NCBI GenBank assembly: GCA_027021705.1
Contig: JALUTT010000047.1
Span: forward strand, 1-51,799
Length of the DNA: 51,799 nt
Direction: 5' to 3'
Source: Anaerolineae bacterium
GTDB lineage: Bacteria > Chloroflexota > Anaerolineae > S140-20
Part shown: positions 13,801-33,341 of the stretch, piece after piece
Position numbering within the stretch: position 1 is the stretch's first letter
Layout of the letters: each line of letters opens with the position of its first letter
Made by a program: the position numbers and the translations under genes
The notes under the pieces: model-generated
Databases searched by the model: none
What the model saw: the letters and a program-made list of their open reading frames with translations, nothing else
Told to the model about the DNA's origin: nothing

Positions 13801-13941
13801 GGAGCGCAGGTGGGGCTGACCGGTGACGGCCAGGTAGCAAAGCAGGGCCTGAGCCTTGGCGGAGATGAAGCCGGTGATCGGCTCTCCGCGCCGCGCAACC
13901 TGCATTCCCCCCAAAAAGGACAGGGAAAGTTCATCGTCCAT
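10870..13941 (-). CDS. AfsR/SARP-type regulator: wHTH-BTAD + STAND (NB-ARC-like) ATPase + TPR
   Basis: LSFLGG...[10 protein letters not shown]...[19 protein letters not shown] (BTAD); Walker A GPGGIGKT; Walker [12 protein letters not shown]-terminal NNLG TPRs. Confidence 0.92.
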
Positions 13942-13954
13942 CGGGGACCTCTTG

Positions 13955-13988
13955 CCTTTACGATCTCTTTACGACGAGGTGCTATAGT
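13955..13988 (+). promoter_or_regulatory. Direct-repeat box and extended -10 for the small-gene/surface-protein operon
   Basis: CCTTTAC-gatc-TCTTTAC-10 bp-TATAGT (CTTTACGA x2, 11-bp period); inverted copy TCGTAAGG at 13992-13999. Confidence 0.7.
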
Positions 13989-14009
13989 TGGTCGTAAGGC
14001 CGCAATCCA

Positions 14010-14018
14010 AGTATAGCA
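14010..14018 (-). promoter_or_regulatory. Extended -10 for the divergent AfsR-like gene
   Basis: TGCTATACT on the minus strand about 70 bp upstream of ATG 13941. Confidence 0.55.
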
Positions 14019-14049
14019 CACCCTGTTGGAAGGCCGCAAGGGGGGAAAG

Positions 14050-14280
14050 ATGCACGTACCAGCCCGGCCATCACGCTACCGGGCTTACCTGCTGCGGTGT
14101 TGGGAGGAGAGCGAGCAAGGGACCGGGCGGGGAAAGGTCTGGCGGTTTAGTCTGGAGGATGCCTACACAAGCCAACGGCGGGGCTTCGCTAGCTTGGAAG
14201 AGATGATGGCCTTCCTGCGCAGCCAGTTGGAGGGGGAAGCCGATCCGCCACCCCGGCAGGTGAGCATCGAGGGCATCTGA
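14050..14280 (+). CDS. Small hypothetical protein (76 aa), homolog of 29644-29844
   Basis: RBS AGGGGG; YLLRCWEE...WRFSLEDAYTSQRRGFASLEEMMAFLR; first gene after a promoter. Confidence 0.75.
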   Translation: MHVPARPSRYRAYLLRCWEESEQGTGRGKVWRFSLEDAYTSQRRGFASLEEMMAFLRSQLEGEADPPPRQVSIEGI

Positions 14281-14309
14281 AAAGACAAACTCAGGAAAAG
14301 GAACGAACG

Positions 14310-15008
14310 ATGGAAGCTCAAACCAACAGCACCTCGGAATACTTGGCCGCTACCGCGCTGTGCGACTGTGACAACCCCTGGTTGCGCGGCCTAGCGGCAG
14401 AGATCACCCAGGGGGCGGAGACCCCCACCGAGAAGGCGATGCGCGTTTTCGAGTACGTGCGCGACCACGTCCGCTTCGGCCTGGCCTTCAGCCGCTCCAA
14501 AGCCTCGCAGACCCTGAAGCGGGGCTACGGTGAGTGCGGCACCAAGACCAACGCCCAGGTGGCCCTGCTGCGCGCCATCGGCATCCCGGCCCGCTTCCGC
14601 CGGGTGCGGGCCAAATCGGAGGTGCTCCACGGCCTTATCCTCGAGTTCGTCTACAAGCAGATACCGCCCACCGCTTCCCATTTTTGGGCCGAATGCTATC
14701 TCGATGGCCGCTGGGTCTCCTGCGAGGCCCTGCTCGACCGGCCCCTCTACGAGGGGATGCTGCGGGCCGGACTGCTCACCAAAGCGCAGATCCCGACGAT
14801 TGACTGGGACGGTCACAGCGACCTGGTGCTCCTCGGCCCCTGGATCACTGAGGACCTGGGACATCTGCCCGGCTACGACGAGGCCCTGGCCGCGCTCATC
14901 CGCAACAAGGAGGACATCCCGCCCCTCTGGTTTGAGCGGCTCATTGCGCCCTGGTTCTACCCGCTCAACCTGCGGCCCTCGGATCGGCTGCGTCGGCTGG
15001 CAAGGTAA
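14310..15008 (+). CDS. Transglutaminase-like (papain-fold) protein
   Basis: GYGECGTKT (Cys), LLRAIGIPAR, HFWAECYLDGRWVSCE (His; Glu in place of usual Asp); no signal peptide. Confidence 0.88.
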   Translation: MEAQTNSTSEYLAATALCDCDNPWLRGLAAEITQGAETPTEKAMRVFEYVRDHVRFGLAFSRSKASQTLKRGYGECGTKTNAQVALLRAIGIPARFRRVRAKSEVLHGLILEFVYKQIPPTASHFWAECYLDGRWVSCEALLDRPLYEGMLRAGLLTKAQIPTIDWDGHSDLVLLGPWITEDLGHLPGYDEALAALIRNKEDIPPLWFERLIAPWFYPLNLRPSDRLRRLAR

Positions 15009-15101
15009 AGACGGTGCGATCCAGGTGCGAGGCACCCGGCGCACCCACAGCACCGAAATCCCAATGACAGCACGCGACAGGATGTGTTTCGGAGGTGTGA
15101 T

Positions 15102-18100
15102 ATGAAAACCTCACTCTCTTGTCACCTTTTTCGCCTTTCTCTGGTGATGGCCCTTCTCCTCGGCCTGTTGCCGATGCCGGTGGAAGGATGGGGTTCCCGG
15201 CAGGCCCCCCAGGCCACCATCGTCGTCAACTCCGAGGGGGACCAAGCGGACCCCACGCCGGACGACGGCACCTGCGACATCTTCGACCCGCCCCAGGGCA
15301 TCTGCACCCTGCGGGCAGCCATCCAGACGGCCGACGGGAGCGGGGCGCCTGGCGCAGATACCATCACCTTTGCCGCCAACGTCTCCACCATCAAGCTCAC
15401 CGACGACCTGCCGTGGATCAGAAGCCCCGTCACCATCAACGGCCAGAAGCGGGTGGTGCTGGACGGAAATGACAGAGATAACAACTTCTGCTTCGTGTTT
15501 TCGGGGGTTAGCGGAGGCGCCACGGTCACCGGGATGATCATCAACAACTGCAAGTATGCGATCTGGCTGTTTGGCGGCGGTCCTTACACCATCCAGGGCA
15601 ACTATATCGGCACCGACCGCACCGGAACGGTGGCCAAGCCCAACAAGTACAGCATAGGGGTAGACGATGCGTCCCACGTCCTCATCGGTGGCACCACCGC
15701 CGACGAGCGCAACGTCATCTCCGGCAATATCTACGACGGCATCTCCATAGACTCCGGCAGCTACATCACCATCACCGGCAACTACATCGGCGTTGACGCC
15801 ACCGGCACCAAAGCCCTGGGAAACGGCGACGACGGGGTTGACGTCTCCGGGCTTTTCTCCTGGAAGACGACCACCAACGTCGCCATCGGCGGCAACACGG
15901 CGGGGGCCCGCAACGTCATCGCCGGCAACGGCGACGACGGCATCCTGGTCTCCGGTCAGTATGCGACGAGCATCACCATCCAGGGCAACTACATCGGCAC
16001 CGATAAGGACGGGCTCAAGGACCTCGGCAACGGCGGGGACGGCGTCCACCTGATGAGCGACTCCTCGCAGAACACCGTCGGCGGGGGGAGCATCACCGCC
16101 GGGCAGCCTTGCTCCGGGGCCTGCAACGTCATCTCTGGCAACGAAGGCCACGGGATTTACATCAGCAGCGATAACAACACTGTAGCAGGCAACTTTATCG
16201 GCACCGACGTCAACGGCACGGCGGCCATTCCCAACAGCGACGCGGGCGTATACACATCTTTGGCCTACACCACCACCATCCGCAGCAACCTCATCTCCGG
16301 CAACCACGGCAATGGCATCCGACTCTCCGGTGGCTACAATGTTGTCCGGGGCAACTTTATCGGCACCGACATCAACGGTACGGCCAGGCTGGGCAATGGC
16401 GGGGCCGGGGTATACAACGAGGGCGACTGGAGCGTGATCGGCGGCGACCCCGGCGGCAGCCTCCCGGCCACTTGTGCCGATCCCTGCAACCTCATCTCCG
16501 CCAACAGCAGCGTGGGCATCACGACCACCGCAGGAACCGGAGGGCACACCACCATCATCGGCAACTTTATCGGCGCCGACGTCAGTGGTGAGTTCCCCCT
16601 GGGCAACCAGAGCCACGGCATAGCGGCTTACGAGGAAGAGGATGCGGTGATCTCTCAGAACCTGATCTCGGCCAACGGAGGGCACGGAGTCTATCTTTCC
16701 AGTGGAGAGTACACCTTCGGCTATTCCAACACCCTCCAGGCCAACATCATCGGGATGACCGACGACGAGGACGAAAACGCCACCTATATGGGCAACCAGG
16801 GGTACGGTATCTTTGTGTACCGGAACAAGAACACCTTCATCGGCGGGGAGCAGGACGGACAGGGCAACACCATCGCCCTCAACGTCCGGAGGGGCGTGGC
16901 GATCTCTTCCACTCTATCCACCGGGAACCGCATCCTGCGCAATTCCATCTTCGACAATGCTCAGATGGGCATAGACCTGGGCGAGGACGGCGTGACCCCC
17001 AACGACGCCGGTGATGGCGACATCGGCCCCAACAACCTCCAGAACTACCCCGTCATCACCGACATCCAGGGCACCCAGGTCTCGGGGGTGCTGACCAGCA
17101 CGGCCAACACCACCTTCCGGCTGGAGTTCTTTGCCAATCCCCTTTGTAGCTTCAGCGGGCATGGCCAGGGCAAAATCTTCCTGGGCAGCCTGGACGTGAC
17201 CACCGACGCCCACGGGCGGGCGGACTTCCAGGGCAATCTGACCACCGCGCCTCCCAGCGGCCACGTGGTCGCCGCCACCGCCACCGACCCCGATGGCAAC
17301 ACCTCCGAGTTCTCGGCCTGCTACGGGGGGCTGGTGGTCAACTCCGTTGGGGACAAGGGAGACAAGACTCTCGGCGACGGCCTCTGCGATACCGGCGACA
17401 CCATCTCCAACGGCGATCCCGAGTGCACCCTGCGGGCGGCCATCGAGGAAGCCAACGCCCTCTCCGGCCCCAGCACCATCTCCTTCGACATCCCGGGATA
17501 CGGCACCGATATCCCCACCATCTGGTTGAACAGCCCTCTCCCTCAGGTGAATAACCGGGTCTCCATCAACGGCACCACCCAAAGCGGCGGCCTGGTGCAC
17601 CTGGAGGGTGCCTCGGCCGGGGCCAACGCCAACGGCCTGGAGCTCCGGGGAGGGAAGAGCCGGGTCGGCGGGCTGGTCTTCTGCGGCTTCGATGGGCACG
17701 GCATCCTGCTGGCCGGCGGGGACGGCCACGTCGTCGCCGGCAACCTCATCGGCGTTGACGAGAACAACAACGCCTGCTCCATCGGTGGCAACGGCATCCG
17801 CATAGAGGACACTTCGGATAACAACGTCATCGGTGGAACCACAGAAGTGGAGCGCAATGTCATCGCCAACAGCGCCTTCAGCGGCATCTACGTGATGGCC
17901 GGTTCCAGCGGCAACTCCATCCGGGGCAACTACATCGGCACCGACCTCAGCGGCACGACCGCCCAGGGCAACGCTCTGGCCGGCGTGCACATCGAAGGAG
18001 ACGGGAACTTTGTGGGCGGCCTGGTGGATTCCTGGGGGACGTGTGCCGGAGCCTGTAACCTGATTGCGGGCAACAAGTACGGGGTGCTCCTGAGCGGCAG

Positions 18101-19964
18101 CGGCGCCCTCACCAACACCGTCCAGGGCAACTTCATCGGCACCAACCGCACCGGCACGGCGGCTCTGGGCAACGCAGAGGTGGGGGTCGTCGTCACCGAC
18201 GGCGCTTCCGACAACCTCATCGGCGGGGCGTGGGAGACGATGCGCAACCTCATCTCCGGCAACGGCACCGGAGCGGGAACCACCGCCGCTGCCACCACTC
18301 TCTACGGCGGCGTGGTGGTCAACGGCTCCTCGTCCACCGGCAACACGGTGCAGGGCAACTACATCGGCGTGCGGGCCGACGGTGTGAGTGTGCTCCCCAA
18401 CCAGGGCGACGGCGTCTGGCTCTACCAGGCCGCCAACAACACCGTCGCCGATAACGTCATCTCCGGCAACCAGGACAACGGCGTGGAGGTCGTCGGCTCG
18501 GCAGCGACGGGGAACCGGATTCAGGGCAACCTCATCGGCACCGACAAGGACGGCACCATCGCCGTCGCCAACGGCGGGGCGGGGGTTTTCCTCAACGGGG
18601 CATCCGGGAACCGCGTGGGCGGCACCGAGGCCGGGCAGGGGAACATCATCGCCGGCAACGACGGGAGCGGGGTCAAGATCAGCGGCAGCGGGGCCGACAA
18701 CAACGTTGTCCAGGGCAACACCATCGGTATCCGGGGAGACCTCGCCGGGAGCCTGCCCAACGACGGCGACGGGGTCTTCATCGGCGAGGGAGCCAAGGAC
18801 AACCAGGTCGGCGGCACCGAGGAGGGGGCGGAGAACTTCATCGGCGGCAACGGCTCCGACGGTGTGGAGATCAACGGCACGGACACCACGGGCAACGCGG
18901 TGCAGGGCAACGCCATCGGCACCCTCGGCGACGGCGTCACCCGCATCGGCAACCGGGGCCACGGTGTCCACCTCGCCGCCGGGGCCGGACAGAACACCGT
19001 CGGCGGGGTCATCACCGCCACGGCCAACCTCATCGCCTTCAACGGCGGCGACGGGGTCTACGTGGCTGCCGGCAGCGGCAACACCATCCGTCACAACGCC
19101 GTCTACACCAACGCCGGCCTGGGGATTGACCTGGGCACGGGCGGCGTCACCCCCAACGACGCCGGCGATGCCGACGGTGGGGCCAACGGGTTGCAGAACT
19201 TCCCGCTGCTCACCTCACTGGTCATCAGCAACGGGGTGGCGACCGTCGAAGGCGTGCTCAACAGCACCGCTGCGACGAGCTACACCCTGGAGTTCTTCGC
19301 CAACGCCGCCTGCGATCCCTCGCTGCACGGCGAAGGGCAGCGCTACTTGGGGGCCATCACGGTGACCACCAACACCGGCGGCGATGCCGCTTTCACCTTC
19401 ACCGCCCCGCTGTCCGAGACCGAAAAGGTGGCCGCCACCGCTACCGACCCCAACGGCAACACGTCAGAGTTCTCTCGGTGCGTCCGACGCACGGAGCGAA
19501 GGGTGGTGGACCCGACCGTTGGCGCCAGCGTTGTCCTCACCGATACCCAGGGCAACCGGACGGTCATCGAGATACCCACCGGGGCCGTCACCTATACCCA
19601 GCCCATCACCCTGGCCTACGCGCTGATCGAGGACGCGGTGGGCGCTCCCACGGGCTTCGCCTCCGGCAACCACGCCTTCGAGTTGAGCGCATATCTGGGA
19701 CACACGCCGCTGTTCGGCCTGCGCTTCTCCCCGCCCATCACCGTCACCATCCATTACAGCGATGCGGACGTGGCGGGGATGCAGGAAGACGCGCTGACGC
19801 TGCGCTACTGGGACGGTTCGGCTTGGTCCGACGACGGCATCGGCGTGGTGGAGCGAGACACCGACGCTAACTACGTGGTCTTCACCGTGGCCCACCTGAG
19901 CGACTTTGCGCTGTTCGGGCGGGTCTACGACATCTACCTGCCACTGGTGTTGCGGAACCGGTGA
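15102..19964 (+). CDS. Large secreted CSLREA-type/right-handed beta-helix protein with internal duplication; YLPLV tail
   Basis: Signal peptide; two CTLRAAI motifs; many GNxIGTD repeats; two GIDLG..GVTPNDAGD...GNTSEFS modules; ends DIYLPLVLRNR. Confidence 0.9.
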   Translation: MKTSLSCHLFRLSLVMALLLGLLPMPVEGWGSRQAPQATIVVNSEGDQADPTPDDGTCDIFDPPQGICTLRAAIQTADGSGAPGADTITFAANVSTIKLTDDLPWIRSPVTINGQKRVVLDGNDRDNNFCFVFSGVSGGATVTGMIINNCKYAIWLFGGGPYTIQGNYIGTDRTGTVAKPNKYSIGVDDASHVLIGGTTADERNVISGNIYDGISIDSGSYITITGNYIGVDATGTKALGNGDDGVDVSGLFSWKTTTNVAIGGNTAGARNVIAGNGDDGILVSGQYATSITIQGNYIGTDKDGLKDLGNGGDGVHLMSDSSQNTVGGGSITAGQPCSGACNVISGNEGHGIYISSDNNTVAGNFIGTDVNGTAAIPNSDAGVYTSLAYTTTIRSNLISGNHGNGIRLSGGYNVVRGNFIGTDINGTARLGNGGAGVYNEGDWSVIGGDPGGSLPATCADPCNLISANSSVGITTTAGTGGHTTIIGNFIGADVSGEFPLGNQSHGIAAYEEEDAVISQNLISANGGHGVYLSSGEYTFGYSNTLQANIIGMTDDEDENATYMGNQGYGIFVYRNKNTFIGGEQDGQGNTIALNVRRGVAISSTLSTGNRILRNSIFDNAQMGIDLGEDGVTPNDAGDGDIGPNNLQNYPVITDIQGTQVSGVLTSTANTTFRLEFFANPLCSFSGHGQGKIFLGSLDVTTDAHGRADFQGNLTTAPPSGHVVAATATDPDGNTSEFSACYGGLVVNSVGDKGDKTLGDGLCDTGDTISNGDPECTLRAAIEEANALSGPSTISFDIPGYGTDIPTIWLNSPLPQVNNRVSINGTTQSGGLVHLEGASAGANANGLELRGGKSRVGGLVFCGFDGHGILLAGGDGHVVAGNLIGVDENNNACSIGGNGIRIEDTSDNNVIGGTTEVERNVIANSAFSGIYVMAGSSGNSIRGNYIGTDLSGTTAQGNALAGVHIEGDGNFVGGLVDSWGTCAGACNLIAGNKYGVLLSGSGALTNTVQGNFIGTNRTGTAALGNAEVGVVVTDGASDNLIGGAWETMRNLISGNGTGAGTTAAATTLYGGVVVNGSSSTGNTVQGNYIGVRADGVSVLPNQGDGVWLYQAANNTVADNVISGNQDNGVEVVGSAATGNRIQGNLIGTDKDGTIAVANGGAGVFLNGASGNRVGGTEAGQGNIIAGNDGSGVKISGSGADNNVVQGNTIGIRGDLAGSLPNDGDGVFIGEGAKDNQVGGTEEGAENFIGGNGSDGVEINGTDTTGNAVQGNAIGTLGDGVTRIGNRGHGVHLAAGAGQNTVGGVITATANLIAFNGGDGVYVAAGSGNTIRHNAVYTNAGLGIDLGTGGVTPNDAGDADGGANGLQNFPLLTSLVISNGVATVEGVLNSTAATSYTLEFFANAACDPSLHGEGQRYLGAITVTTNTGGDAAFTFTAPLSETEKVAATATDPNGNTSEFSRCVRRTERRVVDPTVGASVVLTDTQGNRTVIEIPTGAVTYTQPITLAYALIEDAVGAPTGFASGNHAFELSAYLGHTPLFGLRFSPPITVTIHYSDADVAGMQEDALTLRYWDGSAWSDDGIGVVERDTDANYVVFTVAHLSDFALFGRVYDIYLPLVLRNR

Positions 19965-20009
19965 GGTGGCGGTAGGCGCGACGCACTTTGAAACAACTGG
20001 AGGTGAAAG

Positions 20010-22553
20010 ATGTCTGTCAAGTCCTTACGTCCAGTCGTTCTGACGGCCACCTTTGCTTTGCTGGCCGTCGCAGGACTGCTGGTAACGATGGGTAGGCCCG
20101 CCCACGCCGCGCCGGATGTGCGCTACGTGGCTCCCGGCGGGAGCGATGCCGGCAACGAGTGCACCGACAGCGCCAACCCCTGCGCCACGGTGCAGCACGC
20201 CGTGGACGTGGCCCAACCTGGTGACGAGATCCGCGTCGCTGCCGGAGTCTACACCGGCGTGCAGGGGCGGACGGCGCCGACCGGCTACCCCGGCACGACG
20301 GTCGTCACCCAGGTGGTCTACATCAGCAAGACGCTGACGGTGTGCGGCGGCTACACCACCACCAACTGGACCACCCCCGACCCGGCCGCCAACCCCACCA
20401 CGCTGGACGCCCAGGGACAGGGGCGGGGGCTCTTTATCGGCGGGGGCATCACCGTCACCGTCGAGGGGCTGCGGGTCACCGGCGGGGACGCCACCGGCCT
20501 TGGCGGCGGCTACTCGAATGGCGACGCCGGCGGCGGGGTCTACGTCTACCAGAGCACGGCCACCATCAGCGCTACCACAATCTACAGCAACGTAGCCCAG
20601 AGCGGAGGGGCGGGTTCGACCGGCTACGGCGGCGGCCTGTCAGCCCATACCGGCCACGTCACACTGCTCAACAGCCGGCTCCTCTCCAACACGGCCTCGA
20701 CCACCGGCGCCGGATACGGCGGAGGAGCCGGGTTCTACGGCTACAACGGCGGATCGGCCACGCTCATCAGCAACACCATTCGGGGCAACCGGGCCAGCAC
20801 GGGCGCCGCCACTTACAAGTACGGATACGGTGGTGGCCTCTCCTTCCGCTCGATGGAGCAGGGGGCTGTCTTCCTGGAAAGCAACCTCATCCAGGACAAC
20901 ACGGCTATGGACGGCAATGAGAGTGGATACGGGGGAGGGATATACCTCCAGAACGCACTCACTACCACCATCATCAGCAACACGATCCAGGGAAACACGG
21001 CCAGCCACTCGACGGCCGGCACCTCCAAGGGCGGCTACGGCGGCGGACTCTGGATACAGAACAGCCCGGGATCCGTGGCCCACAATACCATCATCAGCAA
21101 CACGGGATGCACGGGCTGTTCCGGCTCCGGTGGAGGGACGTGGGTCGACGCAGACGTCACGGTGAGCGACAACACGATCAGTGGAAACGCGGCCAGCCTG
21201 ACCTCCAGGGGGAAGGGTGGTGGGCTGTACTTCTCACGTGGTACTGACGTGCAGGGCAACACCATCACGGGGAACACCGCCAGCCGTGATAACCTGGGCT
21301 ACGGCGGAGGAGCATACCTTTCCCTGTGGTCTGCCACCTTTGGCAGCAACACCGTGGCCGACAACGTCGCCAGCCGGAACGGCGAGGGCTGGGGCGGCGG
21401 ATTGTACGTGAACGGAACCACAGGGGCCGCGCCCGTCCTGGCGGGCAATCGGATCCTCACCAACACCGCCAGCCTCTCCTCCACCGGGAAGGGCGGCGGC
21501 CTCTTCCTGACGGTCTCCACCCTCTCATTGACGACCAACACGATCGCCTTCAACGTCGCCGGCGGCGGGGGCGCCGGCGACGGCGGCGGGATATATTCCG
21601 AGGTGGGCGACCTCGCCTTTTCCGCCAACCTCATCTACAGCAACACGGCCACTTTAAGCGAAACCGCCACCGGTCGGGGCGGCGGGCTCTACGGAGACCG
21701 GGACAGCATCGCTATGGTCAACAACCTCATCGCCGATAACCACGCCAACACCGCCGGGAGCGGCTTTTACCTTGCGGGCACTTCCTCCACCCCCTTCTCC
21801 GGCCAATTCGCCCACAATACCATCGCCGACAATCACAGCAGCGGTCAGGGGGTCTACGCTGGCGACTACGCCACGCTGGTCTTCACCAATACCATCATCG
21901 CCGGCCACGCCACGGCGGGAGTCACCACCACCGCCGGGGCGGTGGTCACGATGACGGCGACCCTCTGGCACGGCAACGGCAGCGACGTGGGCGGGCCGGG
22001 CAGCATCTACACCGCCACGAACCTCTATGGCGACCCGGCCTTTGCTGACCCCTCGGCCTGGGACTATCACCTCACCGCCGGTTCACCGGCCATTGACGCC
22101 GGGGTGAATGCAGGCGTGACGACCGACTTTGAGGGCGACCCCCGGCCGGCCGGAGCCGGTTACGACCTGGGGGCCGACGAGTATTACACCATCGGGGTAC
22201 AGCTATCCCCCGATCGCAGTGGTGTGGGCAGCCCGGTTCAGGCTGCCGTCTACACCCATACCCTGACCAACACCGGCAACTACACCGACACCTTCACCAT
22301 AACCGGGCAGGCCCCGTCCGGCTGGACGATGCAGATCGCCCCGAACTCCGTCACCCTGGGGCAGGGGGCCGCTCAGATGATCTCGGTCACGGTCACCCTG
22401 CCGACCGACGCCATCAGCGGCACTGTGGGGAGCATCGTCATAACCGCCACCTCCCAGGCCGACGCAAGTGTCTTCGCCACGGCGACTGATGCTACCACGG
22501 TCTGGGTGCGGCGCATCTACATCCCGCTGACGCTGCGCAACTATGGGCCATAG
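20010..22553 (+). CDS. Secreted beta-helix protein, paralog of 285-3185; YIPL tail
   Basis: Signal peptide ending AHA; GYGGG repeats; DYHLTAGSPAIDAG...DLGADEY; ends RIYIPLTLRNYGP. Confidence 0.88.
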   Translation: MSVKSLRPVVLTATFALLAVAGLLVTMGRPAHAAPDVRYVAPGGSDAGNECTDSANPCATVQHAVDVAQPGDEIRVAAGVYTGVQGRTAPTGYPGTTVVTQVVYISKTLTVCGGYTTTNWTTPDPAANPTTLDAQGQGRGLFIGGGITVTVEGLRVTGGDATGLGGGYSNGDAGGGVYVYQSTATISATTIYSNVAQSGGAGSTGYGGGLSAHTGHVTLLNSRLLSNTASTTGAGYGGGAGFYGYNGGSATLISNTIRGNRASTGAATYKYGYGGGLSFRSMEQGAVFLESNLIQDNTAMDGNESGYGGGIYLQNALTTTIISNTIQGNTASHSTAGTSKGGYGGGLWIQNSPGSVAHNTIISNTGCTGCSGSGGGTWVDADVTVSDNTISGNAASLTSRGKGGGLYFSRGTDVQGNTITGNTASRDNLGYGGGAYLSLWSATFGSNTVADNVASRNGEGWGGGLYVNGTTGAAPVLAGNRILTNTASLSSTGKGGGLFLTVSTLSLTTNTIAFNVAGGGGAGDGGGIYSEVGDLAFSANLIYSNTATLSETATGRGGGLYGDRDSIAMVNNLIADNHANTAGSGFYLAGTSSTPFSGQFAHNTIADNHSSGQGVYAGDYATLVFTNTIIAGHATAGVTTTAGAVVTMTATLWHGNGSDVGGPGSIYTATNLYGDPAFADPSAWDYHLTAGSPAIDAGVNAGVTTDFEGDPRPAGAGYDLGADEYYTIGVQLSPDRSGVGSPVQAAVYTHTLTNTGNYTDTFTITGQAPSGWTMQIAPNSVTLGQGAAQMISVTVTLPTDAISGTVGSIVITATSQADASVFATATDATTVWVRRIYIPLTLRNYGP

Positions 22554-22589
22554 GTAGGGGTGGGGCTTGCACCCGCCTTCCTGCCGTTA

Positions 22590-22620
22590 CCCTCCCGCAG
22601 GCTCCGAGCCTGCGGGAGGG
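22590..22620. repeat. Short derivative of element A (hairpin)
   Basis: ccctcccgcagg-ctccgag-cctgcgggaggg. Confidence 0.8.
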
Positions 22621-22647
22621 ACAGACAAAGAAAGGGAGAGAGACACA

Positions 22648-23685
22648 ATGGTTAAGAAAGTCCTGTTTCTGACGACATTGCTCGCAATTCTCGCAAGCGG
22701 GTGCAAACCCGGAGCATCTGCGCCTGTCACCGAGACCGCGTCTGCCGTCCCCGCCAACACCCCCATCCCGACGGACACCCCTTTCCCCCCCACGCCCACA
22801 CCCACCCCGACGGAGACGCCCCTCCCCCCAACACCCACCCCCACCCCGACGGAAACGCCTGTCCCTCCCACGCCAACGCCGGAACTGCCGCGGGAATCCG
22901 GCCTGGAGGCTAACCCTCAGCGGGTGGAGTTCCAGGCCCAGGACGGCACGCAGTTGGTGGGATATTATTACCCCTCCCGTTTCGCCGATGCTCACATCAT
23001 CGTCCTGGCGCACTGGGCCGGCGGCAATCAGCGGGACTGGGTAGAGATCGCCATGTGGCTCCAGAACCGCCGGGACGAGGTAACCGAGTACCCGCAGCCG
23101 ACCGATGACACCTCCCTCGGCCCCTGGCTCGATCCCTCCTGGTTCCCTCCGATGCCCGCCGACGTCTCCTTTGCCGTCTTCACCTTCGACTTCCGGGGGT
23201 TTGGCGAGAGTGCCTCGGGAGCGTGGGAGGATATGCTACAGGACGCCCAGGCTGCCTTCGAGACGGCGGCGGAGATGGAGGGGATCGACCCGCAGCGGAT
23301 GGCGGGGATCGGAGCCAGCATCGGTGCCGACGGCGCGCCCGGCGGCTGTTTGCTCTACAATCAGACGCAGGGCGGCGGCTGCCTGGGGGCAATGGCCCTT
23401 TCGCCGGGCAACTACTTGGTGGACTTTGCCTCGGTGGTGGAGCAACTGGAGGCCCTCGACCCGCAGGCCGAGGTCTGGTGCCTGGCGGATAAAGAGGACG
23501 AGGCCGCCTACACGACCTGCAAACCCATCAGTGGAGACCTGTACCAGTTCTACGTTTTCCAGAACGCCGGGCATGGGATGATGCTCATTCGCCCTAAAGT
23601 GGAACCGCAGCCGCTGGTGCTGATCCAGCAGTTCCTGGGAGAACTGTTTGGGATTCCCTCCCTGAAAGGCTCAAAAACTCGGTGA
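22648..23685 (+). CDS. Lipoprotein with Pro/Thr linker and alpha/beta-hydrolase domain
   Basis: Lipobox LASGC; PTPTPTETP repeats; FDFRGFGES; GASIG nucleophile elbow; AGHG His. Confidence 0.85.
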   Translation: MVKKVLFLTTLLAILASGCKPGASAPVTETASAVPANTPIPTDTPFPPTPTPTPTETPLPPTPTPTPTETPVPPTPTPELPRESGLEANPQRVEFQAQDGTQLVGYYYPSRFADAHIIVLAHWAGGNQRDWVEIAMWLQNRRDEVTEYPQPTDDTSLGPWLDPSWFPPMPADVSFAVFTFDFRGFGESASGAWEDMLQDAQAAFETAAEMEGIDPQRMAGIGASIGADGAPGGCLLYNQTQGGGCLGAMALSPGNYLVDFASVVEQLEALDPQAEVWCLADKEDEAAYTTCKPISGDLYQFYVFQNAGHGMMLIRPKVEPQPLVLIQQFLGELFGIPSLKGSKTR

Positions 23686-23698
23686 AATTCCGTTGCCA

Positions 23699-23733
23699 CC
23701 CTCCCGCAGGCTCCCTGGTACTCAGCCTGCGGG
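23699..23733. repeat. Short degenerate derivative of element A
   Basis: ccctcccgcaggct...agcctgcggga. Confidence 0.7.
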
Positions 23734-23764
23734 AAAGATCCATGGCAGGCGAAAGGAGGCTGAA

Positions 23765-26530
23765 ATGCGCTTGCAAAGTTGGTTATCGTTTGTGGTGTTG
23801 ATCGCCCTGTTGCTGGTCGGCAGGGCTTCTCCAGCGGCCTCCTGGGCTGCTCATGGATCGCTCCCCCTGGCCGACTGGGGCGACGGATCCCTTCTCTTCG
23901 TCGAGAACGTGGGTCAGTTCGACCCCCGCGCCCACTTCCAGGTGCGCGGGGGTGATGCCACTCTCTGGCTGGCCGAAGATGGGCTGTGGATAACCCTCAC
24001 CCCCTCCCCCCTTGCCCCCCTCCCCCTCTCCCAAGATTGGGAGAGGGGGAGGGGAACGGCCGTCAGGCCGGGGGGAGGGGGTGAGGGCGTCGTCCTTCAC
24101 CTCTCTTTCCCCGGTGCCGCTCCCCACCCCCGCCTGATGCCCTTCGGTCGGCAAGAGATGGTGGTTAACTACTACCGGGGGAACGACCCGGCGCAATGGC
24201 ACACCCACGTGCCCGTGTGGGGCGGCGTGCGGTACGTGGACCTCTACCCCGGCGTGGACCTGGAGATCACCGGCGTGGGCGGCTACCTCGCCTGGCGGCT
24301 GGTCGCGCAACACGCAACAGGCAGCCCGGAGGATGTGCGCCTGCGGGTGGAGGGGGCAGAGGATGTCACGGTGGAGGGGAACGTCCTGCGCCTGACCACG
24401 GCAGTGGGCACTTTCACCCTGCCGCTCTTGCAGGGAGAAGGCCCCGCCGTGCCCCAGGTGCGCCCGGCAGAGGGAGGGGGGTTCCTGGTGACCGCCCCCT
24501 TTGCTCCGAGAAGCGCCGGACCCACGGCAGTGGAGGCCGCCAGCGCGCTACTCCTGGGCACTTACCTGGGCGGCAGCGGCGGGGACCGGGTGGAAGGGAT
24601 CGCGGCCGACGGCACCGGGGCGGTCTACGTCACCGGCTGGACCTTCTCCACCAACTTCCCCACCGAGGGGCCGGGGGCGACCTCCTCGCTGAGCGGCAAC
24701 TGCGACGCCTTCATCACCAAACTGGAGACCTCGCCGACCGGCACTTTCCGCCCTGCCTACAGCACCTACCTGGGCGGCTCCTACACCAGCGACGATTACA
24801 AGGATTCCATCACCGAGAGCGGGATGGACATTGCCGTGGAGAACGGCGCGGCCTACGTGGCCGGGTACACCTGGTCGAACGACTTCCCCACCACCGCCGG
24901 GGCCTACGACACCACCTTCAACGGGCCGACCGTCTCGCCCGATGCCACCCCTGAGCGGCCCGGCTGGGACGGATTCGTCGTCAAACTGGATTCCTCCGGC
25001 AACCTGGCCTACTCCACCTACCTGGGCGGCTCCGGCTACGACGTTCCCGGCGGCGGGCGCGGCGGCGGCGACGATGAAGCACGGGGCATTGCCGTGAGAG
25101 ATGGCATCCTCTACGTCACCGGCTACACCAAGTCCTCAGACTTCCCCACCACCGCCGGGGCCTACGACCGTACCTACGCCAACGTGGACGTGGGCCTCAA
25201 CGACGACGTCTTCGTGGTCAAGCTGAACCCGGCCGGTAACGGGAACGCCGACCTCCTCTACGGCACCTTCGTCGGCGGCGGGATGCCGGAGGTGGGCAAC
25301 GATCTCGCCGTGGACGGTTCCGGCGTCGTCTACGTCACCGGTTGGACCGGCGACATCTTCGGCCCTGCCATCACCAACGACTTTCCCACCACCGGGGGGG
25401 CATACGACCCCCAGTCTCCGGCGGACGACGTAGAGGCTTTCTTCTTCCGGCTGAACCCGGCCGGCAACGGCGATGCGGACCTCCTCTACTCGACCTTCCT
25501 GGGCGGGAACGGCGGCTCCGATTACGGCCACGCCGTCGCAGTGGACGGGGCGGGGAACGTCTATCTCGTCGGGAGCACGACCTCGTCCGATTTCCCCGCC
25601 ACCCCCGGCGCCTTCGACACCACCTGTGGCACCGACGGCCGGTGCAACTCCACCGCCGGCTGGGGAGCCTACGACGACGTGTTCGTCGCCAAACTGAACC
25701 CGGCCGGAGGCGGCACATCCGACCTGCTCTACGCCACCTTCCTGGGTGGGAGCCATACTGACGGCTGGATCGTGGACTGGGCCGACATCGCGATAGATGG
25801 AAGTGGGGATGTGTACATCACCGGCTTGACCTCTTCCAGCGACTTTCCCCTCACGCCGGATGCCTATGACGACACGTACAGTTACACCGACGCTTTTGTG
25901 ACCCGCCTCAGCCTCCAGGGGAAGGGACAAGATGACCTGGTCTACAGCACTTTTCTAGGCGGGAGCGACGTAGACAAGGGACTGGGAGTGGCCCTCGAAT
26001 CCGAAGGCGTCATCTGGATCGCCGGTTACACCAAGTCATCAGACTTCCCCACCACCGATGACGCCTTCGACAAGCTTTACAACGGCGGCGGCGACGGCTT
26101 TGTAGTCAAGATGATGGCCCCGCCGCCCACGCCCGACCTCTCCCCCTCGACCAAGGAGGTGAACCCCACCGTCGCATCTGCCGGGGAGGTGGTCACCTTC
26201 ACCGCGCGTCTGGTCAACAGTGGGATGATCAGCGCCACCGTCGCCTTCACCGACACCCTGCCCGCATCGCTGCTCCTGCAGGGCACCCCCACCGCCAGCG
26301 CCGGCCCCACCCCGACGGTGAACGGGCAAACCATCACCTGGACAGGCAGTGTGGCAGCGAACGACCGGGTCACCATCACCTACGCCACCCTGCTCACCTC
26401 GACCGTGACGCTCACGCCCACCGTCTTCAACCAGGCCGAGATCAACGACGGGCACGGCAACGTGTACGTGCGCCGGGCCTACGTGAATGGGCACCGCCTC
26501 TTCCTGGCCATCGTGCTCAAGAACCGGTGA
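23765..26530 (+). CDS. Secreted SBBP beta-propeller repeat protein with C-terminal DUF11-like domain; FLAIV variant tail
   Basis: Signal peptide; FVENVGQFD, NYYRGNDPAQW; YSTYLGGS/YVTGxTxSxDFP repeats; ends RLFLAIVLKNR. Confidence 0.88.
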   Translation: MRLQSWLSFVVLIALLLVGRASPAASWAAHGSLPLADWGDGSLLFVENVGQFDPRAHFQVRGGDATLWLAEDGLWITLTPSPLAPLPLSQDWERGRGTAVRPGGGGEGVVLHLSFPGAAPHPRLMPFGRQEMVVNYYRGNDPAQWHTHVPVWGGVRYVDLYPGVDLEITGVGGYLAWRLVAQHATGSPEDVRLRVEGAEDVTVEGNVLRLTTAVGTFTLPLLQGEGPAVPQVRPAEGGGFLVTAPFAPRSAGPTAVEAASALLLGTYLGGSGGDRVEGIAADGTGAVYVTGWTFSTNFPTEGPGATSSLSGNCDAFITKLETSPTGTFRPAYSTYLGGSYTSDDYKDSITESGMDIAVENGAAYVAGYTWSNDFPTTAGAYDTTFNGPTVSPDATPERPGWDGFVVKLDSSGNLAYSTYLGGSGYDVPGGGRGGGDDEARGIAVRDGILYVTGYTKSSDFPTTAGAYDRTYANVDVGLNDDVFVVKLNPAGNGNADLLYGTFVGGGMPEVGNDLAVDGSGVVYVTGWTGDIFGPAITNDFPTTGGAYDPQSPADDVEAFFFRLNPAGNGDADLLYSTFLGGNGGSDYGHAVAVDGAGNVYLVGSTTSSDFPATPGAFDTTCGTDGRCNSTAGWGAYDDVFVAKLNPAGGGTSDLLYATFLGGSHTDGWIVDWADIAIDGSGDVYITGLTSSSDFPLTPDAYDDTYSYTDAFVTRLSLQGKGQDDLVYSTFLGGSDVDKGLGVALESEGVIWIAGYTKSSDFPTTDDAFDKLYNGGGDGFVVKMMAPPPTPDLSPSTKEVNPTVASAGEVVTFTARLVNSGMISATVAFTDTLPASLLLQGTPTASAGPTPTVNGQTITWTGSVAANDRVTITYATLLTSTVTLTPTVFNQAEINDGHGNVYVRRAYVNGHRLFLAIVLKNR
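23994..24087. repeat. REP-like nested palindrome lying in-frame inside the SBBP gene
   Basis: ccctcaccccctcccccc/ggggggagggggtgaggg outer arms; cccctccccctctcccaa/ttgggagagggggagggg inner arms; cggcc-gtca-ggccg. Confidence 0.85.
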
Positions 26531-26621
26531 AGGTTGAGAGGGAGCGAGACCTCTCGACGATAACCGCCGGGCTCGGCTGAGAGCGGGCGTTGCCTGCATC
26601 GTCCAGTACGTCGGCAGAAGG

Positions 26622-29600
26622 TCACTCCTTGACCACCAAAGGCAGGTAGAGTTGGGGTTGCAAGTTGGGAATCGGCCAACTCCCCTCCTTCAAGTTATCC
26701 CCCGAAGCCACCAGCGCGAAGGGCTGCGGCCCCTGCGGCACGCTGTAGCCGTGGACGATGACGGTGTAGGTGCCGTAGAGCGCGTTGGGGATGATGATGC
26801 CCTCCACATTGTTGCAGGCATCCCACTTTCCACTCCGCAGGCACTGCCCCGTGGTGTAAAGCCCCTGGTTGCCGTAGTAATGGGTGCCGTCGGGAGCGAT
26901 CACCTCCAGGTCCAGGTCGTTGACCAGAGCCTTGGCCGCCGACGGTTGGCCCGGATAATCCGTCCAGGCCAAGGTGATGCGGAAAGGACCACCGGTGAGG
27001 GTCGTGGTCGGCGTAGAGGTGGGTGTCGGCGTCGGCGTAGCGTCTGGCGTGGTCACGTAGAGGGCCGTGTCGTCCACCCAGGCCCGACTGCTCAGGGAGC
27101 CATCCGTTTGGACGAAGAAGCCGAAAAGCACCGTCTGACCGACCACGGAGGCCAGTTCGGTAGCGCTGAGGCTGTAGACCTCTCTGGTCCAGTCCTGATT
27201 CCCTATCTGACCAAAGTCGGCGCAGCGCTGCACGTAAACCGTGGTCCCTGTCTGATCCCAGATGCTGTAGCAGAAATAGTCTACAGACGTCCAGATCTCG
27301 TCGGTGAGCATGCGATACCAAAAGTCAATGGTTACAGCGGTGGCGTCGGCAGGGATGCCCACCTGCTGCCAGAACTGGTCATTGGCATTGTCAGCATTGC
27401 CCAGGTGGGCCGACCAAGAGCCCGTGTGGGTGACGACATCGGTCAGGTATGGCCAGCCGTAGGTCTGCCAGGGGGACCAGCTTCCCGTCTCAAAGCCAGA
27501 GTTCTGGAGCACCTGGGAGGTCCCCGCCGGACGGAAGCCCGCCTCCCCGACGAAGGGGGGGGCTTGGTCGAGCGACCGGACCGCCGGCTGCGCTGATCCC
27601 ATAGCGCGGGAAGGACCGGAGGTCGCTACCGAGAGCGGGGCCTGCCTGCCGGTCGTCTGGGTCGTGCCGACTGTGAGGGTGTACACCGCTGCACCGCCCG
27701 TGCTCAACCCCGTCGTGTTGTCCTTCAACCAGACCTTGCGGGGCGAGGGTGGGTTCAGGCTCTCCACCAGGTCCACCCGGCCCCAGCCGGCGACGTTGTT
27801 GGGCCGCTGGGAGGGGATCTCCTGGGTAGAACCGGTGCCGTACTGGCCGGGGGTCATATCGGCGGTGCCGTTGACGAGGACCGCCTTCATCAGCGCGGCG
27901 CTGGGATTGGTCACCCCTTTAATGCGGGTCAGCCACTCCCGCACGATGGCCGCCGCCCCGGCGGTCAGCGGCGTTGCCATGCTGGTGCCGCCCATGTAGA
28001 GGTAGTGCTCGTTGTAGACACCCCACCCCGTCCCCGCCTGGGGATCGTGGGAACGGGCGGAGATGATGAAGGTCCCTGGAGCGACCAGATCGGGCTTGAT
28101 CCGTCCATCGTCGGTAGGCCCCCGGCTGGAGAAGGCGGCCATCCCATCGGAGTCGTCGGCTATCTGGTCGCTGAAGATCGGATCTACCGGGAAGTCACTG
28201 GGCCACCCATCCCCCCAGCGGGTGGTGAGGGTGGACCGTAAGTTCTCCGACGCTCCCACCGTGACCACGTTCTTGGCCGTTCCCGGGCTGCCGATAGCGT
28301 CCAGGTCCACCACCCCGTCCGCATCGGCATCCACGCCGCTGTTGCCGGCCGCGTAGAGGATGAGCATATCCTTGTACTGCCACATCATCGTGTCGGCCTG
28401 CTGAGCCTGAGAGTCGTAGCCACCGTATTCAGGGTTTTGGGAAGTCCCTCCTGTTGGTCCTCCCCAGGAGTTGGTGTGCACCCGCGCCCCTTTGTCGTAG
28501 GCCAGCTTGAAGAGGTAGTTGACCAGGTCAGACGGGACACACTCCAGCCCGTTGCCCGGGGCGTTGTCAATGGATTGGAAGACCAGTTGAGCTTCAGGGG
28601 CAACACCAGCGAAGGAGCCCCCATAATTGTGCTGGGATGGATCGCTTCCCGAGAGACGACCATTGCCCAAGACACTCCCCGCCACGTGGGTGCCGTGACC
28701 ATCGAAGTCGTTCCAGGTGGTGCGCCCCCCTTGGAAGAGGGCGCAGATGGCTTGTCCCTCGACGATGCGCCCCTCGAAGTCGTCGCTCATCGCCGAACCG
28801 GTCGTCCCCACGTCCAACCCCGTATCGGCCACCGCCACGATCTGACCCGCGCCGTAGAGGCTCAGGCTGCTGCGCACGTCGTTGGCCCGCATAATCTGGC
28901 CGCCGCCCACGTCGTTGTAGAGCTCCGGCTCGAAGTAGGGCTCCACCCAGAGCACGCCGTCCAGGGCGGCCAGGGCCTCCAGGCGGTCGGGGGCGATGCG
29001 CACCCGGAGGTAGCCGGCGACGGCGTTGGCCCCTCGCCCCAGGACCTTGCCCCCAACCCCCTCGATCGCCCCTTCCAGGGCATCCAGGGCCACATCGGGC
29101 AGCGTCTGCACCGTCACGGTGATCACCTCATCCCCTGCCTCCTGCCCCTTGCCCCTTGCAACCTGCAACTTGCCCCCTGCCCCTTGCAACTTGCTCCCTG
29201 CCCCTTGCAACTTGCCCCCTACCCCTTGCAACTTGCTCCCTGCCCCTTGCAACTCCTCCGCCAGCCGATAGGCAGGGTGATAGAGCCCTACCCAACGGAC
29301 AAAGGGGAGAGAACGCACCTGCTCCGCCACCGCCGGCGTCATCCGGGCGAGGAAGGCGTGGTCAGGGATGTATCCGTAGAGACGGGCCCCCACTCTCTCG
29401 ACCTGCCTCTTCCATACATCGCGCACCGGGCCGGTGAACTGGACCAGGTAGGTAGCCGGACGGTCGGCCTGCACGCTCAGCCGCTGTCCGGCAGGCAAGA
29501 AGGGTTCCCCCTTCAGCGGGTCAAAGGTCGCATAGCGCAGACGGATCTGGGGTGGCGTCGGCGATGAAGCCGCCCGATTCGGCAGGGGAAGCAACACCAG

Positions 29601-29660
29601 CCCCACGATCAGAGCACCCAGGACGAGAAACACTACCAGAGGGCTACGCCTGTGTCTCAT
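26622..29660 (-). CDS. Secreted S8 (subtilisin, KP-43-like) serine peptidase; YLPLV tail
   Basis: Catalytic ADTG, HGTHVAG, GTSMATP; AAGN oxyanion motif; VNDLDL...NNVE C-domain; ends QLYLPLVVKE. Confidence 0.93.
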   Translation of the reverse strand: MRHRRSPLVVFLVLGALIVGLVLLPLPNRAASSPTPPQIRLRYATFDPLKGEPFLPAGQRLSVQADRPATYLVQFTGPVRDVWKRQVERVGARLYGYIPDHAFLARMTPAVAEQVRSLPFVRWVGLYHPAYRLAEELQGAGSKLQGVGGKLQGAGSKLQGAGGKLQVARGKGQEAGDEVITVTVQTLPDVALDALEGAIEGVGGKVLGRGANAVAGYLRVRIAPDRLEALAALDGVLWVEPYFEPELYNDVGGGQIMRANDVRSSLSLYGAGQIVAVADTGLDVGTTGSAMSDDFEGRIVEGQAICALFQGGRTTWNDFDGHGTHVAGSVLGNGRLSGSDPSQHNYGGSFAGVAPEAQLVFQSIDNAPGNGLECVPSDLVNYLFKLAYDKGARVHTNSWGGPTGGTSQNPEYGGYDSQAQQADTMMWQYKDMLILYAAGNSGVDADADGVVDLDAIGSPGTAKNVVTVGASENLRSTLTTRWGDGWPSDFPVDPIFSDQIADDSDGMAAFSSRGPTDDGRIKPDLVAPGTFIISARSHDPQAGTGWGVYNEHYLYMGGTSMATPLTAGAAAIVREWLTRIKGVTNPSAALMKAVLVNGTADMTPGQYGTGSTQEIPSQRPNNVAGWGRVDLVESLNPPSPRKVWLKDNTTGLSTGGAAVYTLTVGTTQTTGRQAPLSVATSGPSRAMGSAQPAVRSLDQAPPFVGEAGFRPAGTSQVLQNSGFETGSWSPWQTYGWPYLTDVVTHTGSWSAHLGNADNANDQFWQQVGIPADATAVTIDFWYRMLTDEIWTSVDYFCYSIWDQTGTTVYVQRCADFGQIGNQDWTREVYSLSATELASVVGQTVLFGFFVQTDGSLSSRAWVDDTALYVTTPDATPTPTPTSTPTTTLTGGPFRITLAWTDYPGQPSAAKALVNDLDLEVIAPDGTHYYGNQGLYTTGQCLRSGKWDACNNVEGIIIPNALYGTYTVIVHGYSVPQGPQPFALVASGDNLKEGSWPIPNLQPQLYLPLVVKE
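29134..29252. repeat. 17 tandem heptamers (CYTGCCC/CYTGCAA/CTTGCTC) in-frame in the S8 prodomain
   Basis: Encodes (LQGAG[SG]K)n; same unit as the 255-282 intergenic repeat. Confidence 0.9.
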
Positions 29661-29844
29661 TGTTCTCTCCCTCCTCTTGCTCAACTTCCTTAATCACAAA
29701 CTGGCGCAGCAGCCGGACCAGTTCGTTCAGGTCTACGAAAGTGATCTCTTGGCCGCTGGTGACGTGGCGCAAGCGGCCTCGCGGGTCCGAACTTCGCGCC
29801 GGGTCGTGGAAGATCGTTAGGATGAACGTTTCGTGGCCTTGCAT
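29644..29844 (-). CDS. Small hypothetical protein (66 aa), homolog of 14050-14280
   Basis: RBS GAGAGGGGG; TFILTIFHD...RGRLRHVTSGQEITFVDLNELVRLLR; overlaps the S8 start by 17 bp. Confidence 0.7.
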   Translation of the reverse strand: MQGHETFILTIFHDPARSSDPRGRLRHVTSGQEITFVDLNELVRLLRQFVIKEVEQEEGENNETQA

Positions 29845-29890
29845 AATCCCCCCTCTCGGAAGACTGGCCCCACCACACCTTCTGCTCCCC

Positions 29891-29924
29891 AGCATACACC
29901 GGTGGTGTGACAAGGGGATGACAA
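29891..29924 (-). promoter_or_regulatory. Direct-repeat (pho-box-like) site and -10 for the small gene-S8 operon
   Basis: TTGTCAT-cccc-TTGTCAC-10 bp-TATGCT. Confidence 0.7.
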
Positions 29925-29959
29925 CGCACAGCCTGCAACTCCCCCTGGGGTGGCGGCGT

Positions 29960-33325: not shown

Positions 33326-33341
33326 GGTGGTCAGGATGTGA

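Follow-up and report, generated by a model that had tools for sequence, protein, structure and literature searches.

The 51,799-nucleotide contig JALUTT010000047.1 of an Anaerolineae bacterium (Chloroflexota; assembly GCA_027021705.1), here called the window, carries two small open reading frames (ORFs), ORF A and ORF B, whose products appear to be distant members of one undescribed superfamily of about 50 residues with the order strand-strand-strand-helix, found mainly in Chloroflexota. That the two proteins share fold and origin is a conclusion in which we have good confidence, and it is equally probable that both genes are under the control of promoters of the SARP type. The reading as a whole, i.e., that related mini-proteins lead transcription units dependent on SARP-type activators and act within the regulatory module, appears to us evenly balanced between right and wrong. 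The two ORFs are as follows.

14050..14280, + strand: ORF A, family A mini-protein, 76 amino acids, start codon ATG at 14050, stop codon TGA at 14278-14280
29644..29844, - strand: ORF B, family B mini-protein, 66 amino acids, start codon ATG at 29844, stop codon TAG at 29646-29644

The G+C (guanine plus cytosine) content of the window is about 62-71%, which gives rise to many long spurious frames, and gene status must therefore rest on conservation. Both ORFs were located at the coordinates of the original prediction and a conserved family was found for each, and we regard them as real genes with near certainty. Ribosome-binding sites lie 5' of the start codons, GGGGGGAAAG for ORF A and GAGAGGGGGG for ORF B. 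A word-indexed protein search returned 58 relatives of ORF A (58 of the 58 scored candidates at E ≤ 0.01), mostly 60-110 residues long and, where labelled at all, designated only "hypothetical protein" from Anaerolineae or Chloroflexi metagenome-assembled genomes (MAGs). The alignment of ORF A with 57 of these, from which the 45-residue fragment P0060 was omitted, yields the consensus YRAYLLRCWEE...WRFSLED..TGQRRGFASLEAL.AFL, after which comes a tail of variable sequence that is often acidic; the family motif listed with ORF A reads YRAYLLRCWEE...WRFSLED..TGQRRGFASLEEL.AFL. Residues W18, R32, F33, S34 and L35 are fully invariant, and another 11 positions are at least 90% conserved. Fused or longer forms (197-2000 residues) were absent from 8,000 candidates at E ≤ 0.001, which counts as weak evidence.

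A set of 76 related loci was obtained by scanning genomes with the pattern [AVS][YF]L[LI]R[CF]W[EQ]E taken from the family A alignment. Chloroflexota account for 72 of them (Anaerolineae, Chloroflexia, Thermoflexia, Caldilineae and Ardenticatenia), the others being from Acidobacteriota (2), Ca. Fraserbacteria (1) and an "uncultured bacterium" (1). Several MAGs contribute 2-3 loci each, and family A is thus paralogous within genomes. One locus carries a second, partial family A-like frame (L049:10325-10522, + strand; HMM positions 25-68, where HMM stands for hidden Markov model; E 4.4e-9), for which a start codon was not found; situated 2.1 kb past the main family A gene, it may be a degraded duplicate.

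For ORF B, the word-indexed search gave 2 close relatives, and an exhaustive phmmer search of 1.84 billion representatives gave 20 at E ≤ 0.001, 4 of which are at E ≤ 1e-10. The 23-sequence alignment defines the family B motif ETFILTLF.DP.RS..RGRLRHV.S..E.TF..L.EL..LL. Neither ORF matches a Pfam or NCBIfam family even at E ≤ 10; there are no PADLOC matches, nothing better than E 0.3 in PHROGs, and only chance-level fragments when PDB sequences are compared with the two family profiles. In the ESM Atlas only unnamed, mainly Chloroflexota clusters were retrieved, one of which has 1,563 members. On inspection, a hydrophobic N-terminal segment of the kind expected for secretion is absent from both proteins and from both consensus sequences. 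The domain cores have a median net charge of +1 in family A and -1 in family B, with median core isoelectric points of 8.5 and 6.1, respectively, and the tails are acidic.

The original prediction had assigned the two ORFs to one family on the basis of an ungapped 27-residue comparison, and direct reading reproduces its 8/27 identities in the pattern R..L......Q...F..L.E....LR. The likeness that had been noted between the N-terminal strands is also recovered, since hhalign places YLLRCWEE over FILTIFHD in the same register, with one 4-residue gap. Because the hhalign rating is low and BLASTP is silent, further profile and shuffle tests were run. When the family A HMM was searched against the 973 stop-to-stop frames of at least 25 residues in the six reading frames of the window, ORF B ranked second after ORF A itself (E 0.0066, the next frame being at 0.38); with the family B HMM, ORF A ranked second after ORF B (E 0.4, next 2.6). 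Against the 18,171 frames of the 76 loci, family A genes take the first 6 places with the family B HMM and make up 9 of its 13 matches at E ≤ 10. Conversely, the first 8 matches of the family A HMM outside family A in a set of 19,167 sequences are all family B entries, and when that HMM was expanded with the locus sequences, family B entries took ranks 1-9 outside family A in the same database.

Composition-preserving shuffles point in the same direction. None of 20,000 shuffles of B reached the 14.2 bits scored by ORF B against the family A HMM (maximum 11.8), and 14 of 20,000 shuffles of A reached the 6.8 bits of the reverse comparison, corresponding to P below 5e-5 and about 7e-4, respectively. 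The hhalign score of 18.8 was reached by 2 of 300 column-shuffled B alignments (mean 9.6, standard deviation 2.3), and the reversed alignment scored 8.8.

Fold models were calculated with AlphaFold2 using the family alignments. For ORF A, strands are predicted at residues 13-20, 30-37 and 43-46 and a helix at 49-61, with a mean predicted local distance difference test (pLDDT) score of 77.7 and 36 residues at 90 or above; for ORF B, strands are predicted at 7-12, 22-27 and 33-36 and a helix at 39-61, with a mean pLDDT of 79.4 and 29 residues at 90 or above. The three strands and helix proposed in the original prediction thus appear in the same order in both models. Agreement between the two folds was judged by the order of the elements and by alignment register: hhalign aligns A12 with B6 and, after the 4-residue gap, continues with an offset of 10, under which the third strand and the beginning of the helix match exactly and the first two strands of B lie within the corresponding strands of A.

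Against a common origin stand the BLASTP comparison of ORF A with ORF B, which gives no alignment, and the HH-suite calibration, on which the link is weak at a probability of 3-4% (4.4%, P 0.0094 over 48 columns for the A profile against ORF B; 3.0%, P 0.015 over 60 columns for profile against profile). In addition, the decoys were random or six-frame sequences and not real strand-strand-strand-helix proteins, so that common descent is unproven and what has been shown is a similarity beyond composition and chance. All of this would be compatible with analogy, in which a minimal strand-strand-strand-helix layout arose in unrelated proteins by convergence and a shared hydrophobic pattern accounts for the weak profile similarity; the conserved surface residues also differ (WRFSL in A, RGRLRH in B), and the neighbouring regulators have opposite domain orders. 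We nevertheless consider convergence improbable, as the real scores are almost never reached by composition-preserving shuffles, the enrichment is reciprocal and family-wide, and the alignment register agrees with the independently predicted secondary structure. Moreover, in evidence that does not depend on protein sequence, each gene adjoins a BTAD regulator and follows a promoter with 11-bp repeats and a common 12-nt geometry. Common origin is therefore preferred: the profiles retrieve each other, families A and B being each other's best non-self match despite an hhalign probability of 3%, the predicted secondary-structure elements agree in order and both ORFs have homologs, so that the single-family claim survives as a remote but consistent relationship.

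Structure comparisons add hints of a different kind. Foldseek searches of both models against the PDB gave no matches at E ≤ 0.001, and a search of the ORF A model against BFVD gave nothing significant. The best match for ORF A is Escherichia coli YaiA (2kvt; E 0.3, template modelling scores 0.51/0.53), which is not among the top 50 for ORF B. Chains with a COMM domain occur weakly in both lists (6bp6_A, 8f2r_E, 8p0w, 9q6a and 9q6c; E 0.17-1.0). The COMM domain is described as a three-strand-plus-helix obligate dimer (PMC13392464). Its order of secondary-structure elements is like that of the mini-proteins; however, it has a helical N-terminal (HN) domain, which the mini-proteins lack and for which they are too short, and all Foldseek E values are above 0.1. 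We treat COMM and YaiA as look-alikes of the models that hint at possible dimerisation, and make no family assignment. Readings of the fold as HicB-like, AP2/integrase-N/MBD-like, MbtH-like or RRM-like are unsupported by the Foldseek lists or by Pfam, and none is claimed.

The second line of evidence comes from the DNA upstream of the two genes, where the following elements were identified.

13956..13974, + strand: box A, two 8-bp direct repeats, CTTTACGA tct CTTTACGA, with starts 11 bp apart
13983..13988, + strand: -10-like hexamer TATAGT, 8 bp past the 3' repeat of box A
29908..29924, - strand: box B, direct repeats TTGTCA tcccc TTGTCA, with starts 11 bp apart
29891..29896, - strand: -10-like hexamer TATGCT, 17 nt after the start of the 3' repeat of box B

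Box A is the only match to its sequence in the window even with up to 3 mismatches allowed, and box B is the only exact match to its own. A canonical sigma-70 -35/-10 pair was not found at 13800-14400, on the box A side, and neither such a pair nor a terminator-like site was found at 29500-30100, on the box B side. According to a review (PMC10936776), the direct repeats of SARP target promoters are spaced by 11 or 22 bp, and 8 bp separate the 3' repeat from the -10 element.

Promoter and regulator counts were made for 75 genes, i.e., the 74 locus genes with a definable start and ORF A of the window. For 49 of the 75 genes, the upstream 200 bp contain an exact 6-mer repeated at an offset of 11, compared with an expectation of 2.4 scaled from 222 other regions of the same loci. 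Other offsets from 6 to 30 are each seen in at most 6 genes, save offset 22, which is seen in 12. Removal of near-duplicates leaves the signal in place (47/72), and it extends to 53/75 when 8-mers with one mismatch are counted. The repeat cores are mostly nnACGnT (TTCACGAT, TGGACGTT, CGAACG, GTAACG and others), and some boxes hold three copies. In 20 of the 31 scorable promoters the A of ACG in the 3'-most repeat lies 12 nt from the -10-like hexamer, with 11 nt in 2 and 13 nt in 1. The promoter of ORF A in the window fits this spacing, and that of ORF B fits with ACA in place of ACG, TATGCT being 12 nt from the A of the ACA core in the 3' repeat of box B.

The family A promoters thus share with SARP-dependent promoters the 11-bp spacing, with some at 22 bp and some with three copies; box A resembles them further in having its 3' repeat exactly 8 bp from the -10, and a usable -35 is absent at box A and box B alike. 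The family A promoters differ in that their cores are mostly nnACGnT, unlike the Streptomyces examples in the review (PMC10936776), and in that this promoter type is linked to one particular first gene, unlike known SARP-dependent promoters.

The third line of evidence is the kind of regulator found next to the mini-protein genes.

10870..13941, - strand: regulator 1, 1023 amino acids, with N-terminal DNA-binding/BTAD (SARP) region, AAA/STAND ATPase and TPR
29960..33613, - strand: regulator 2, 1217 amino acids, with AAA/STAND ATPase, MalT-like TPR, HEAT and C-terminal Trans_reg_C plus BTAD

A local BTAD HMM finds 2 BTAD proteins in the window, and both adjoin a mini-protein gene. Regulator 1 is divergent from ORF A across a gap of 108 bp and matches Pfam BTAD (4e-28, residues 124-252), AAA_16 (1.9e-7, 268-353) and TPR_12 (2.3e-34), with TPR continuing to the C-terminus; it has the AfsR-type layout of large SARPs (DNA-binding plus BTAD, nucleotide-binding, TPR) and aligns end to end with 19 regulators adjoining family A genes. 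Regulator 2, with ORF B 115 bp downstream on the same strand, matches BTAD (2.1e-23, 1075-1215), Trans_reg_C (4.3e-5, 997-1047), AAA_16, TPR_MalT and HEAT_2; it does not have the AfsR-type domain order, its SARP domain (997-1215) being C-terminal in a reversed architecture. Box A begins merely 15 bp from the start codon of regulator 1 (ATG at 13941, - strand), so that the promoter and 5' untranslated region of regulator 1 must overlap the promoter of ORF A on the opposite strand, and an activator at box A could also regulate its own gene.

Across the loci, 52 of the 75 family A genes have a divergent BTAD frame no more than 800 bp upstream, and a convergent one accompanies 2 more (L009 and L018). 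Of 36 complete adjacent regulators, 34 were scanned with Pfam, the near-duplicates at L017 and L056 being omitted, and BTAD was found near the N-terminus in 34/34. Their sensor domains vary: 17 carry TPR, 1 carries nSTAND1 plus WD40, 13 have only the ATPase and 3 only BTAD. The one with WD40, a 1,614-residue BTAD-nSTAND1-WD40 protein, is encoded beside a family A gene at L015:1809-6650 (- strand), and two of the three BTAD-only regulators are about 280 residues long and resemble small SARPs (L051:424-1254 and L068:4433-5275, both - strand). Such WD40 and SARP-only partners indicate that the pairing of regulator and mini-protein is independent of the TPR sensor. A defence-system reading, in which the STAND NTPases would be phage sensors, was set aside; PADLOC matched a generic TPR model only, and the regulators carry DNA-binding SARP domains.

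What follows the mini-protein genes is far less uniform. In the window these genes are the following.

14310..15008, + strand: transglutaminase-like protein, first gene after ORF A, 29 nt past its stop codon (Pfam Transglut_core, 6.9e-22)
15084..26530, + strand: four further co-directional ORFs after ORF A (Pfam and ORF list)
26622..29660, - strand: S8 subtilase directly after ORF B (Pfam Peptidase_S8, 2.8e-43)

Three of the four ORFs in 15084..26530 are large and repeat-rich, with beta-helix/NosD, Ig-like, SBBP beta-propeller and DUF11 matches, and ORF 22567-23685 has no Pfam match; judged by strand and spacing, we infer that these genes share an operon with ORF A. The likely start codon of the subtilase (ATG at 29660) overlaps the last 17 nt of ORF B; it is an in-frame ATG with GGAGGGAGAG upstream and, as read from the sequence, is followed by the signal-peptide-like segment MRHRRSPLVVFLVLGALIVG. 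The N-terminal part of the subtilase, at about 29100-29300 (- strand), has 7-residue repeats in succession (GAGSKLQ, GVGGKLQ and variants), and matching repetitive frames are present on the strand opposite them.

In the related loci, 51 of 70 family A genes have an ORF in the same direction that begins no more than 300 bp further on, the median gap being 43 nt. The ORFs that come first downstream, taken from 67 loci, are very varied, with FG-GAP, beta-helix, DUF11, cadherin-like, RTX, LVIVD, CARDB and NHL proteins, together with 5 solute-binding proteins, 5 ThiJ-like proteins, 2 GlcNAc 2-epimerases, a methyltransferase, a luciferase-like oxygenase and an HATPase_c_2 kinase, and 21 are without a Pfam match. 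At one locus the gene after the family A gene (L047:8167-8625, + strand) has a weak match to a Frankia-type ribosomally synthesised peptide precursor family, which at 27.4 bits lies below the curated cut-off of 48 and is just a hint of a SARP-controlled peptide natural-product cluster. The cassette of SARP-domain regulator, 11-bp repeat box and conserved mini-protein gene recurs in many Chloroflexota lineages with very different cargo.

Several findings weigh against the proposed regulatory module. No divergent BTAD gene adjoins 23 of the 75 family A genes; the contig is too short upstream in some of these (L032, L071, L010 and L057), and at 20 loci without an adjacent BTAD gene Pfam found no BTAD domain in the nearest upstream ORFs (0/20). 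Adjacency of the regulator is thus not obligatory. An exact 11-bp repeat is missing from 26 of the 75 upstream regions, and the gap from the 3' 6-mer of box B to TATGCT is 11 nt and not 8. The loci were retrieved with a single family A peptide pattern, which biases the sample to that motif. For family B, the genomic context is that of this window only, and no family B members were detected among the 18,171 frames of the 76 family A loci. Finally, it is the SARP literature that suggests that the neighbouring regulators would bind boxes A and B.

Repeats are retained at several loci without an adjacent BTAD gene (for example L026, L029, L041, L049, L057 and L061), which indicates that the regulator can act from elsewhere. 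A subgroup of family A (L029, L032, L033, L041, L048, L057 and L061) has the motif PP.Y.SYLLRFWEERG and mostly lacks an adjoining BTAD gene; solute-binding protein genes lie downstream in 5 of its loci. Its members keep TGGACG(T/A)T repeats, with three copies in L041, L057 and L061, and their regulator is presumably encoded elsewhere.

In the mechanism that we propose, each mini-protein gene would be the leader, i.e., the first gene, of a transcription unit with a SARP-type, activator-dependent promoter, one that combines direct repeats, usually two but at times three, at intervals of one DNA turn (11 bp) with a -10-like hexamer at a fixed distance and lacks a usable -35. The activator would most likely be the adjoining BTAD/SARP-domain STAND regulator, divergent in the case of A and upstream on the same strand in the case of B. 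The mini-protein would be produced whenever the activator fires and would then feed back on activation by contact with an element that every module shares, be it the SARP domain or the RNA polymerase at the box. Since regulator, repeat box and mini-protein gene are constant while the cargo varies, the mini-protein would belong to the regulatory module and not to one pathway. The variable sensors (TPR, WD40 or none), set against the invariant W18 and RFSL 32-35, likewise suggest a common partner such as the SARP domain or RNA polymerase, and not the sensor; the invariant residues of family A are predicted on both faces of the strands. A generic housekeeping role would be less expected, given several diverged paralogues per genome, each with its own regulator or box.

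That the mini-protein acts on the activator or the polymerase as a feedback modulator, of either sign, is in our view possible, although somewhat short of an even chance. More tentative still is the specific proposal that the mini-proteins constitute a third component of SARP activation, in which the first product of each SARP-box operon would fix the switch in the on or the off state by docking on the SARP domain or on RNA polymerase at the box. Among the functions suggested in the original prediction, co-activator and anti-activator fit the leader position beside BTAD regulators, whereas export chaperone is disfavoured.

The main functional rival is that the mini-protein binds nucleic acid, be it its own promoter, the overlapping promoter of the regulator or the mRNA of the operon. 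The strands carry conserved Arg, Trp and Phe (R16, W18, W31, R32, F33, R43 and F46) that would suit such a role, anything bound at box A would also affect expression of regulator 1, given the 15-bp distance, and the weak Foldseek matches include small nucleic-acid binders with a similar topology, namely methyl-CpG-binding domains (7d8k, 7feo), a dsRBD (2dmy), Pur-alpha (3nm7) and a phage integrase in BFVD. All of these structural matches, however, have E > 0.05 and none is convincingly common to A and B, and DNA-binding models of Pfam and NCBIfam give no match at E ≤ 10. Near-neutral cores and acidic tails are unlike typical small DNA binders and may argue mildly against DNA binding, and we consider nucleic-acid binding unlikely, yet worth more weight than the other functional alternatives. 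One of these would have the mini-proteins serve the cargo as chaperone, export helper or assembly factor for secreted proteins encoded downstream, as the secreted-looking products after both genes might suggest (the transglutaminase-like protein and giant beta-helix proteins after A, the S8 subtilase after B). It is very unlikely, and in its export-chaperone form was rejected, because the first downstream gene is highly diverse in the 67 loci, ranging from secreted giants to solute-binding proteins and likely cytoplasmic enzymes (the ThiJ-like proteins, methyltransferase, luciferase-like oxygenase, GlcNAc 2-epimerase and HATPase_c_2 kinase); regulator and promoter stay constant where the cargo does not, and it is improbable that a single conserved domain of 50 residues would act as chaperone for such a range of proteins.

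Least credible is the notion that the ORFs are translated leaders only, with the act of translation and not the product tuning the downstream genes by attenuation or coupling. The position first in the operon, the overlap of the end of ORF B with the next start codon and the 43-nt median gap would all be in keeping with it, but amino-acid motifs are conserved among relatives of 40-60% identity, with invariant residues, and the core is confidently folded in prediction (the 36 and 29 residues at pLDDT ≥ 90 in A and B), and the pure leader-peptide reading was rejected on these grounds.

The proposed feedback modulation by the mini-proteins invites comparison with known pairs of regulator and small gene. 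RRNPP-type pairs consist of a TPR regulator and an adjacent small ORF encoding its peptide ligand. Like the mini-protein modules, they place a repeat-domain regulator beside a small ORF under its control, an arrangement that would give feedback. The mini-proteins, however, are without an N-terminal hydrophobic signal by inspection and are predicted to fold, and some partner regulators are without TPR, all of which makes an exported-peptide mechanism unlikely.

A closer parallel is AfsR, which is described as a SARP-NOD-TPR protein that activates adjacent afsS, a small protein gene whose product has a still unknown mode of action (PMC10972967, PMC10936776). At the afsS promoter, AfsR binds two 11-bp direct repeats that overlap a poor -35, and the -10 is poor as well (PMC10936776). 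Regulator 1 shares the large-SARP layout with AfsR, namely SARP domain, nucleotide-binding domain and TPR, as given in PMC10972967; ORF A and ORF B are both small genes beside a SARP regulator and behind a repeat box, and ORF B copies the afsR-then-afsS gene order. AfsR differs from regulator 2 in that the SARP domain of the latter is C-terminal. The system differs further in that the mini-protein genes head operons of variable genes and occur in Chloroflexota, not Actinobacteria, and AfsS, compared by description only, appears unrelated in fold to the mini-proteins, which are predicted to be compact strand-strand-strand-helix proteins. A literature search, outside of which lies subscription-only literature, found no papers describing the mini-protein family or the cassette.

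SARP activators have been studied almost wholly as switches of antibiotic production in Streptomyces. The present analysis provides a sequence-level rule to predict SARP regulons in a poorly studied phylum, a new and unannotated protein family with a confidently predicted fold, and a feedback hypothesis that can be tested with a protein of 66-76 residues, a SARP domain of about 260 residues and a 40-bp promoter. If the mini-proteins are indeed a third component of SARP activation, each activator in these Chloroflexota genomes would have its own feedback element, SARP biology would reach well past antibiotic control in Actinobacteria, and the mini-proteins would provide an amenable system in which to study how AfsS and other small SARP targets might act.

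Two further features of the window lie beyond regulator 1. Just past its 3' end, a 252-residue ORF at 10035-10793 (+ strand) encodes an AbiEii-type nucleotidyltransferase toxin domain (Pfam 1e-14). At 4543-9725 (- strand), two large ORFs of 861 and 876 residues carry BNR/sialidase-like and PD40 beta-propeller repeats; these ORFs and the beta-helix giants at 15084-26530 together give the window its wealth of secreted repeat proteins.

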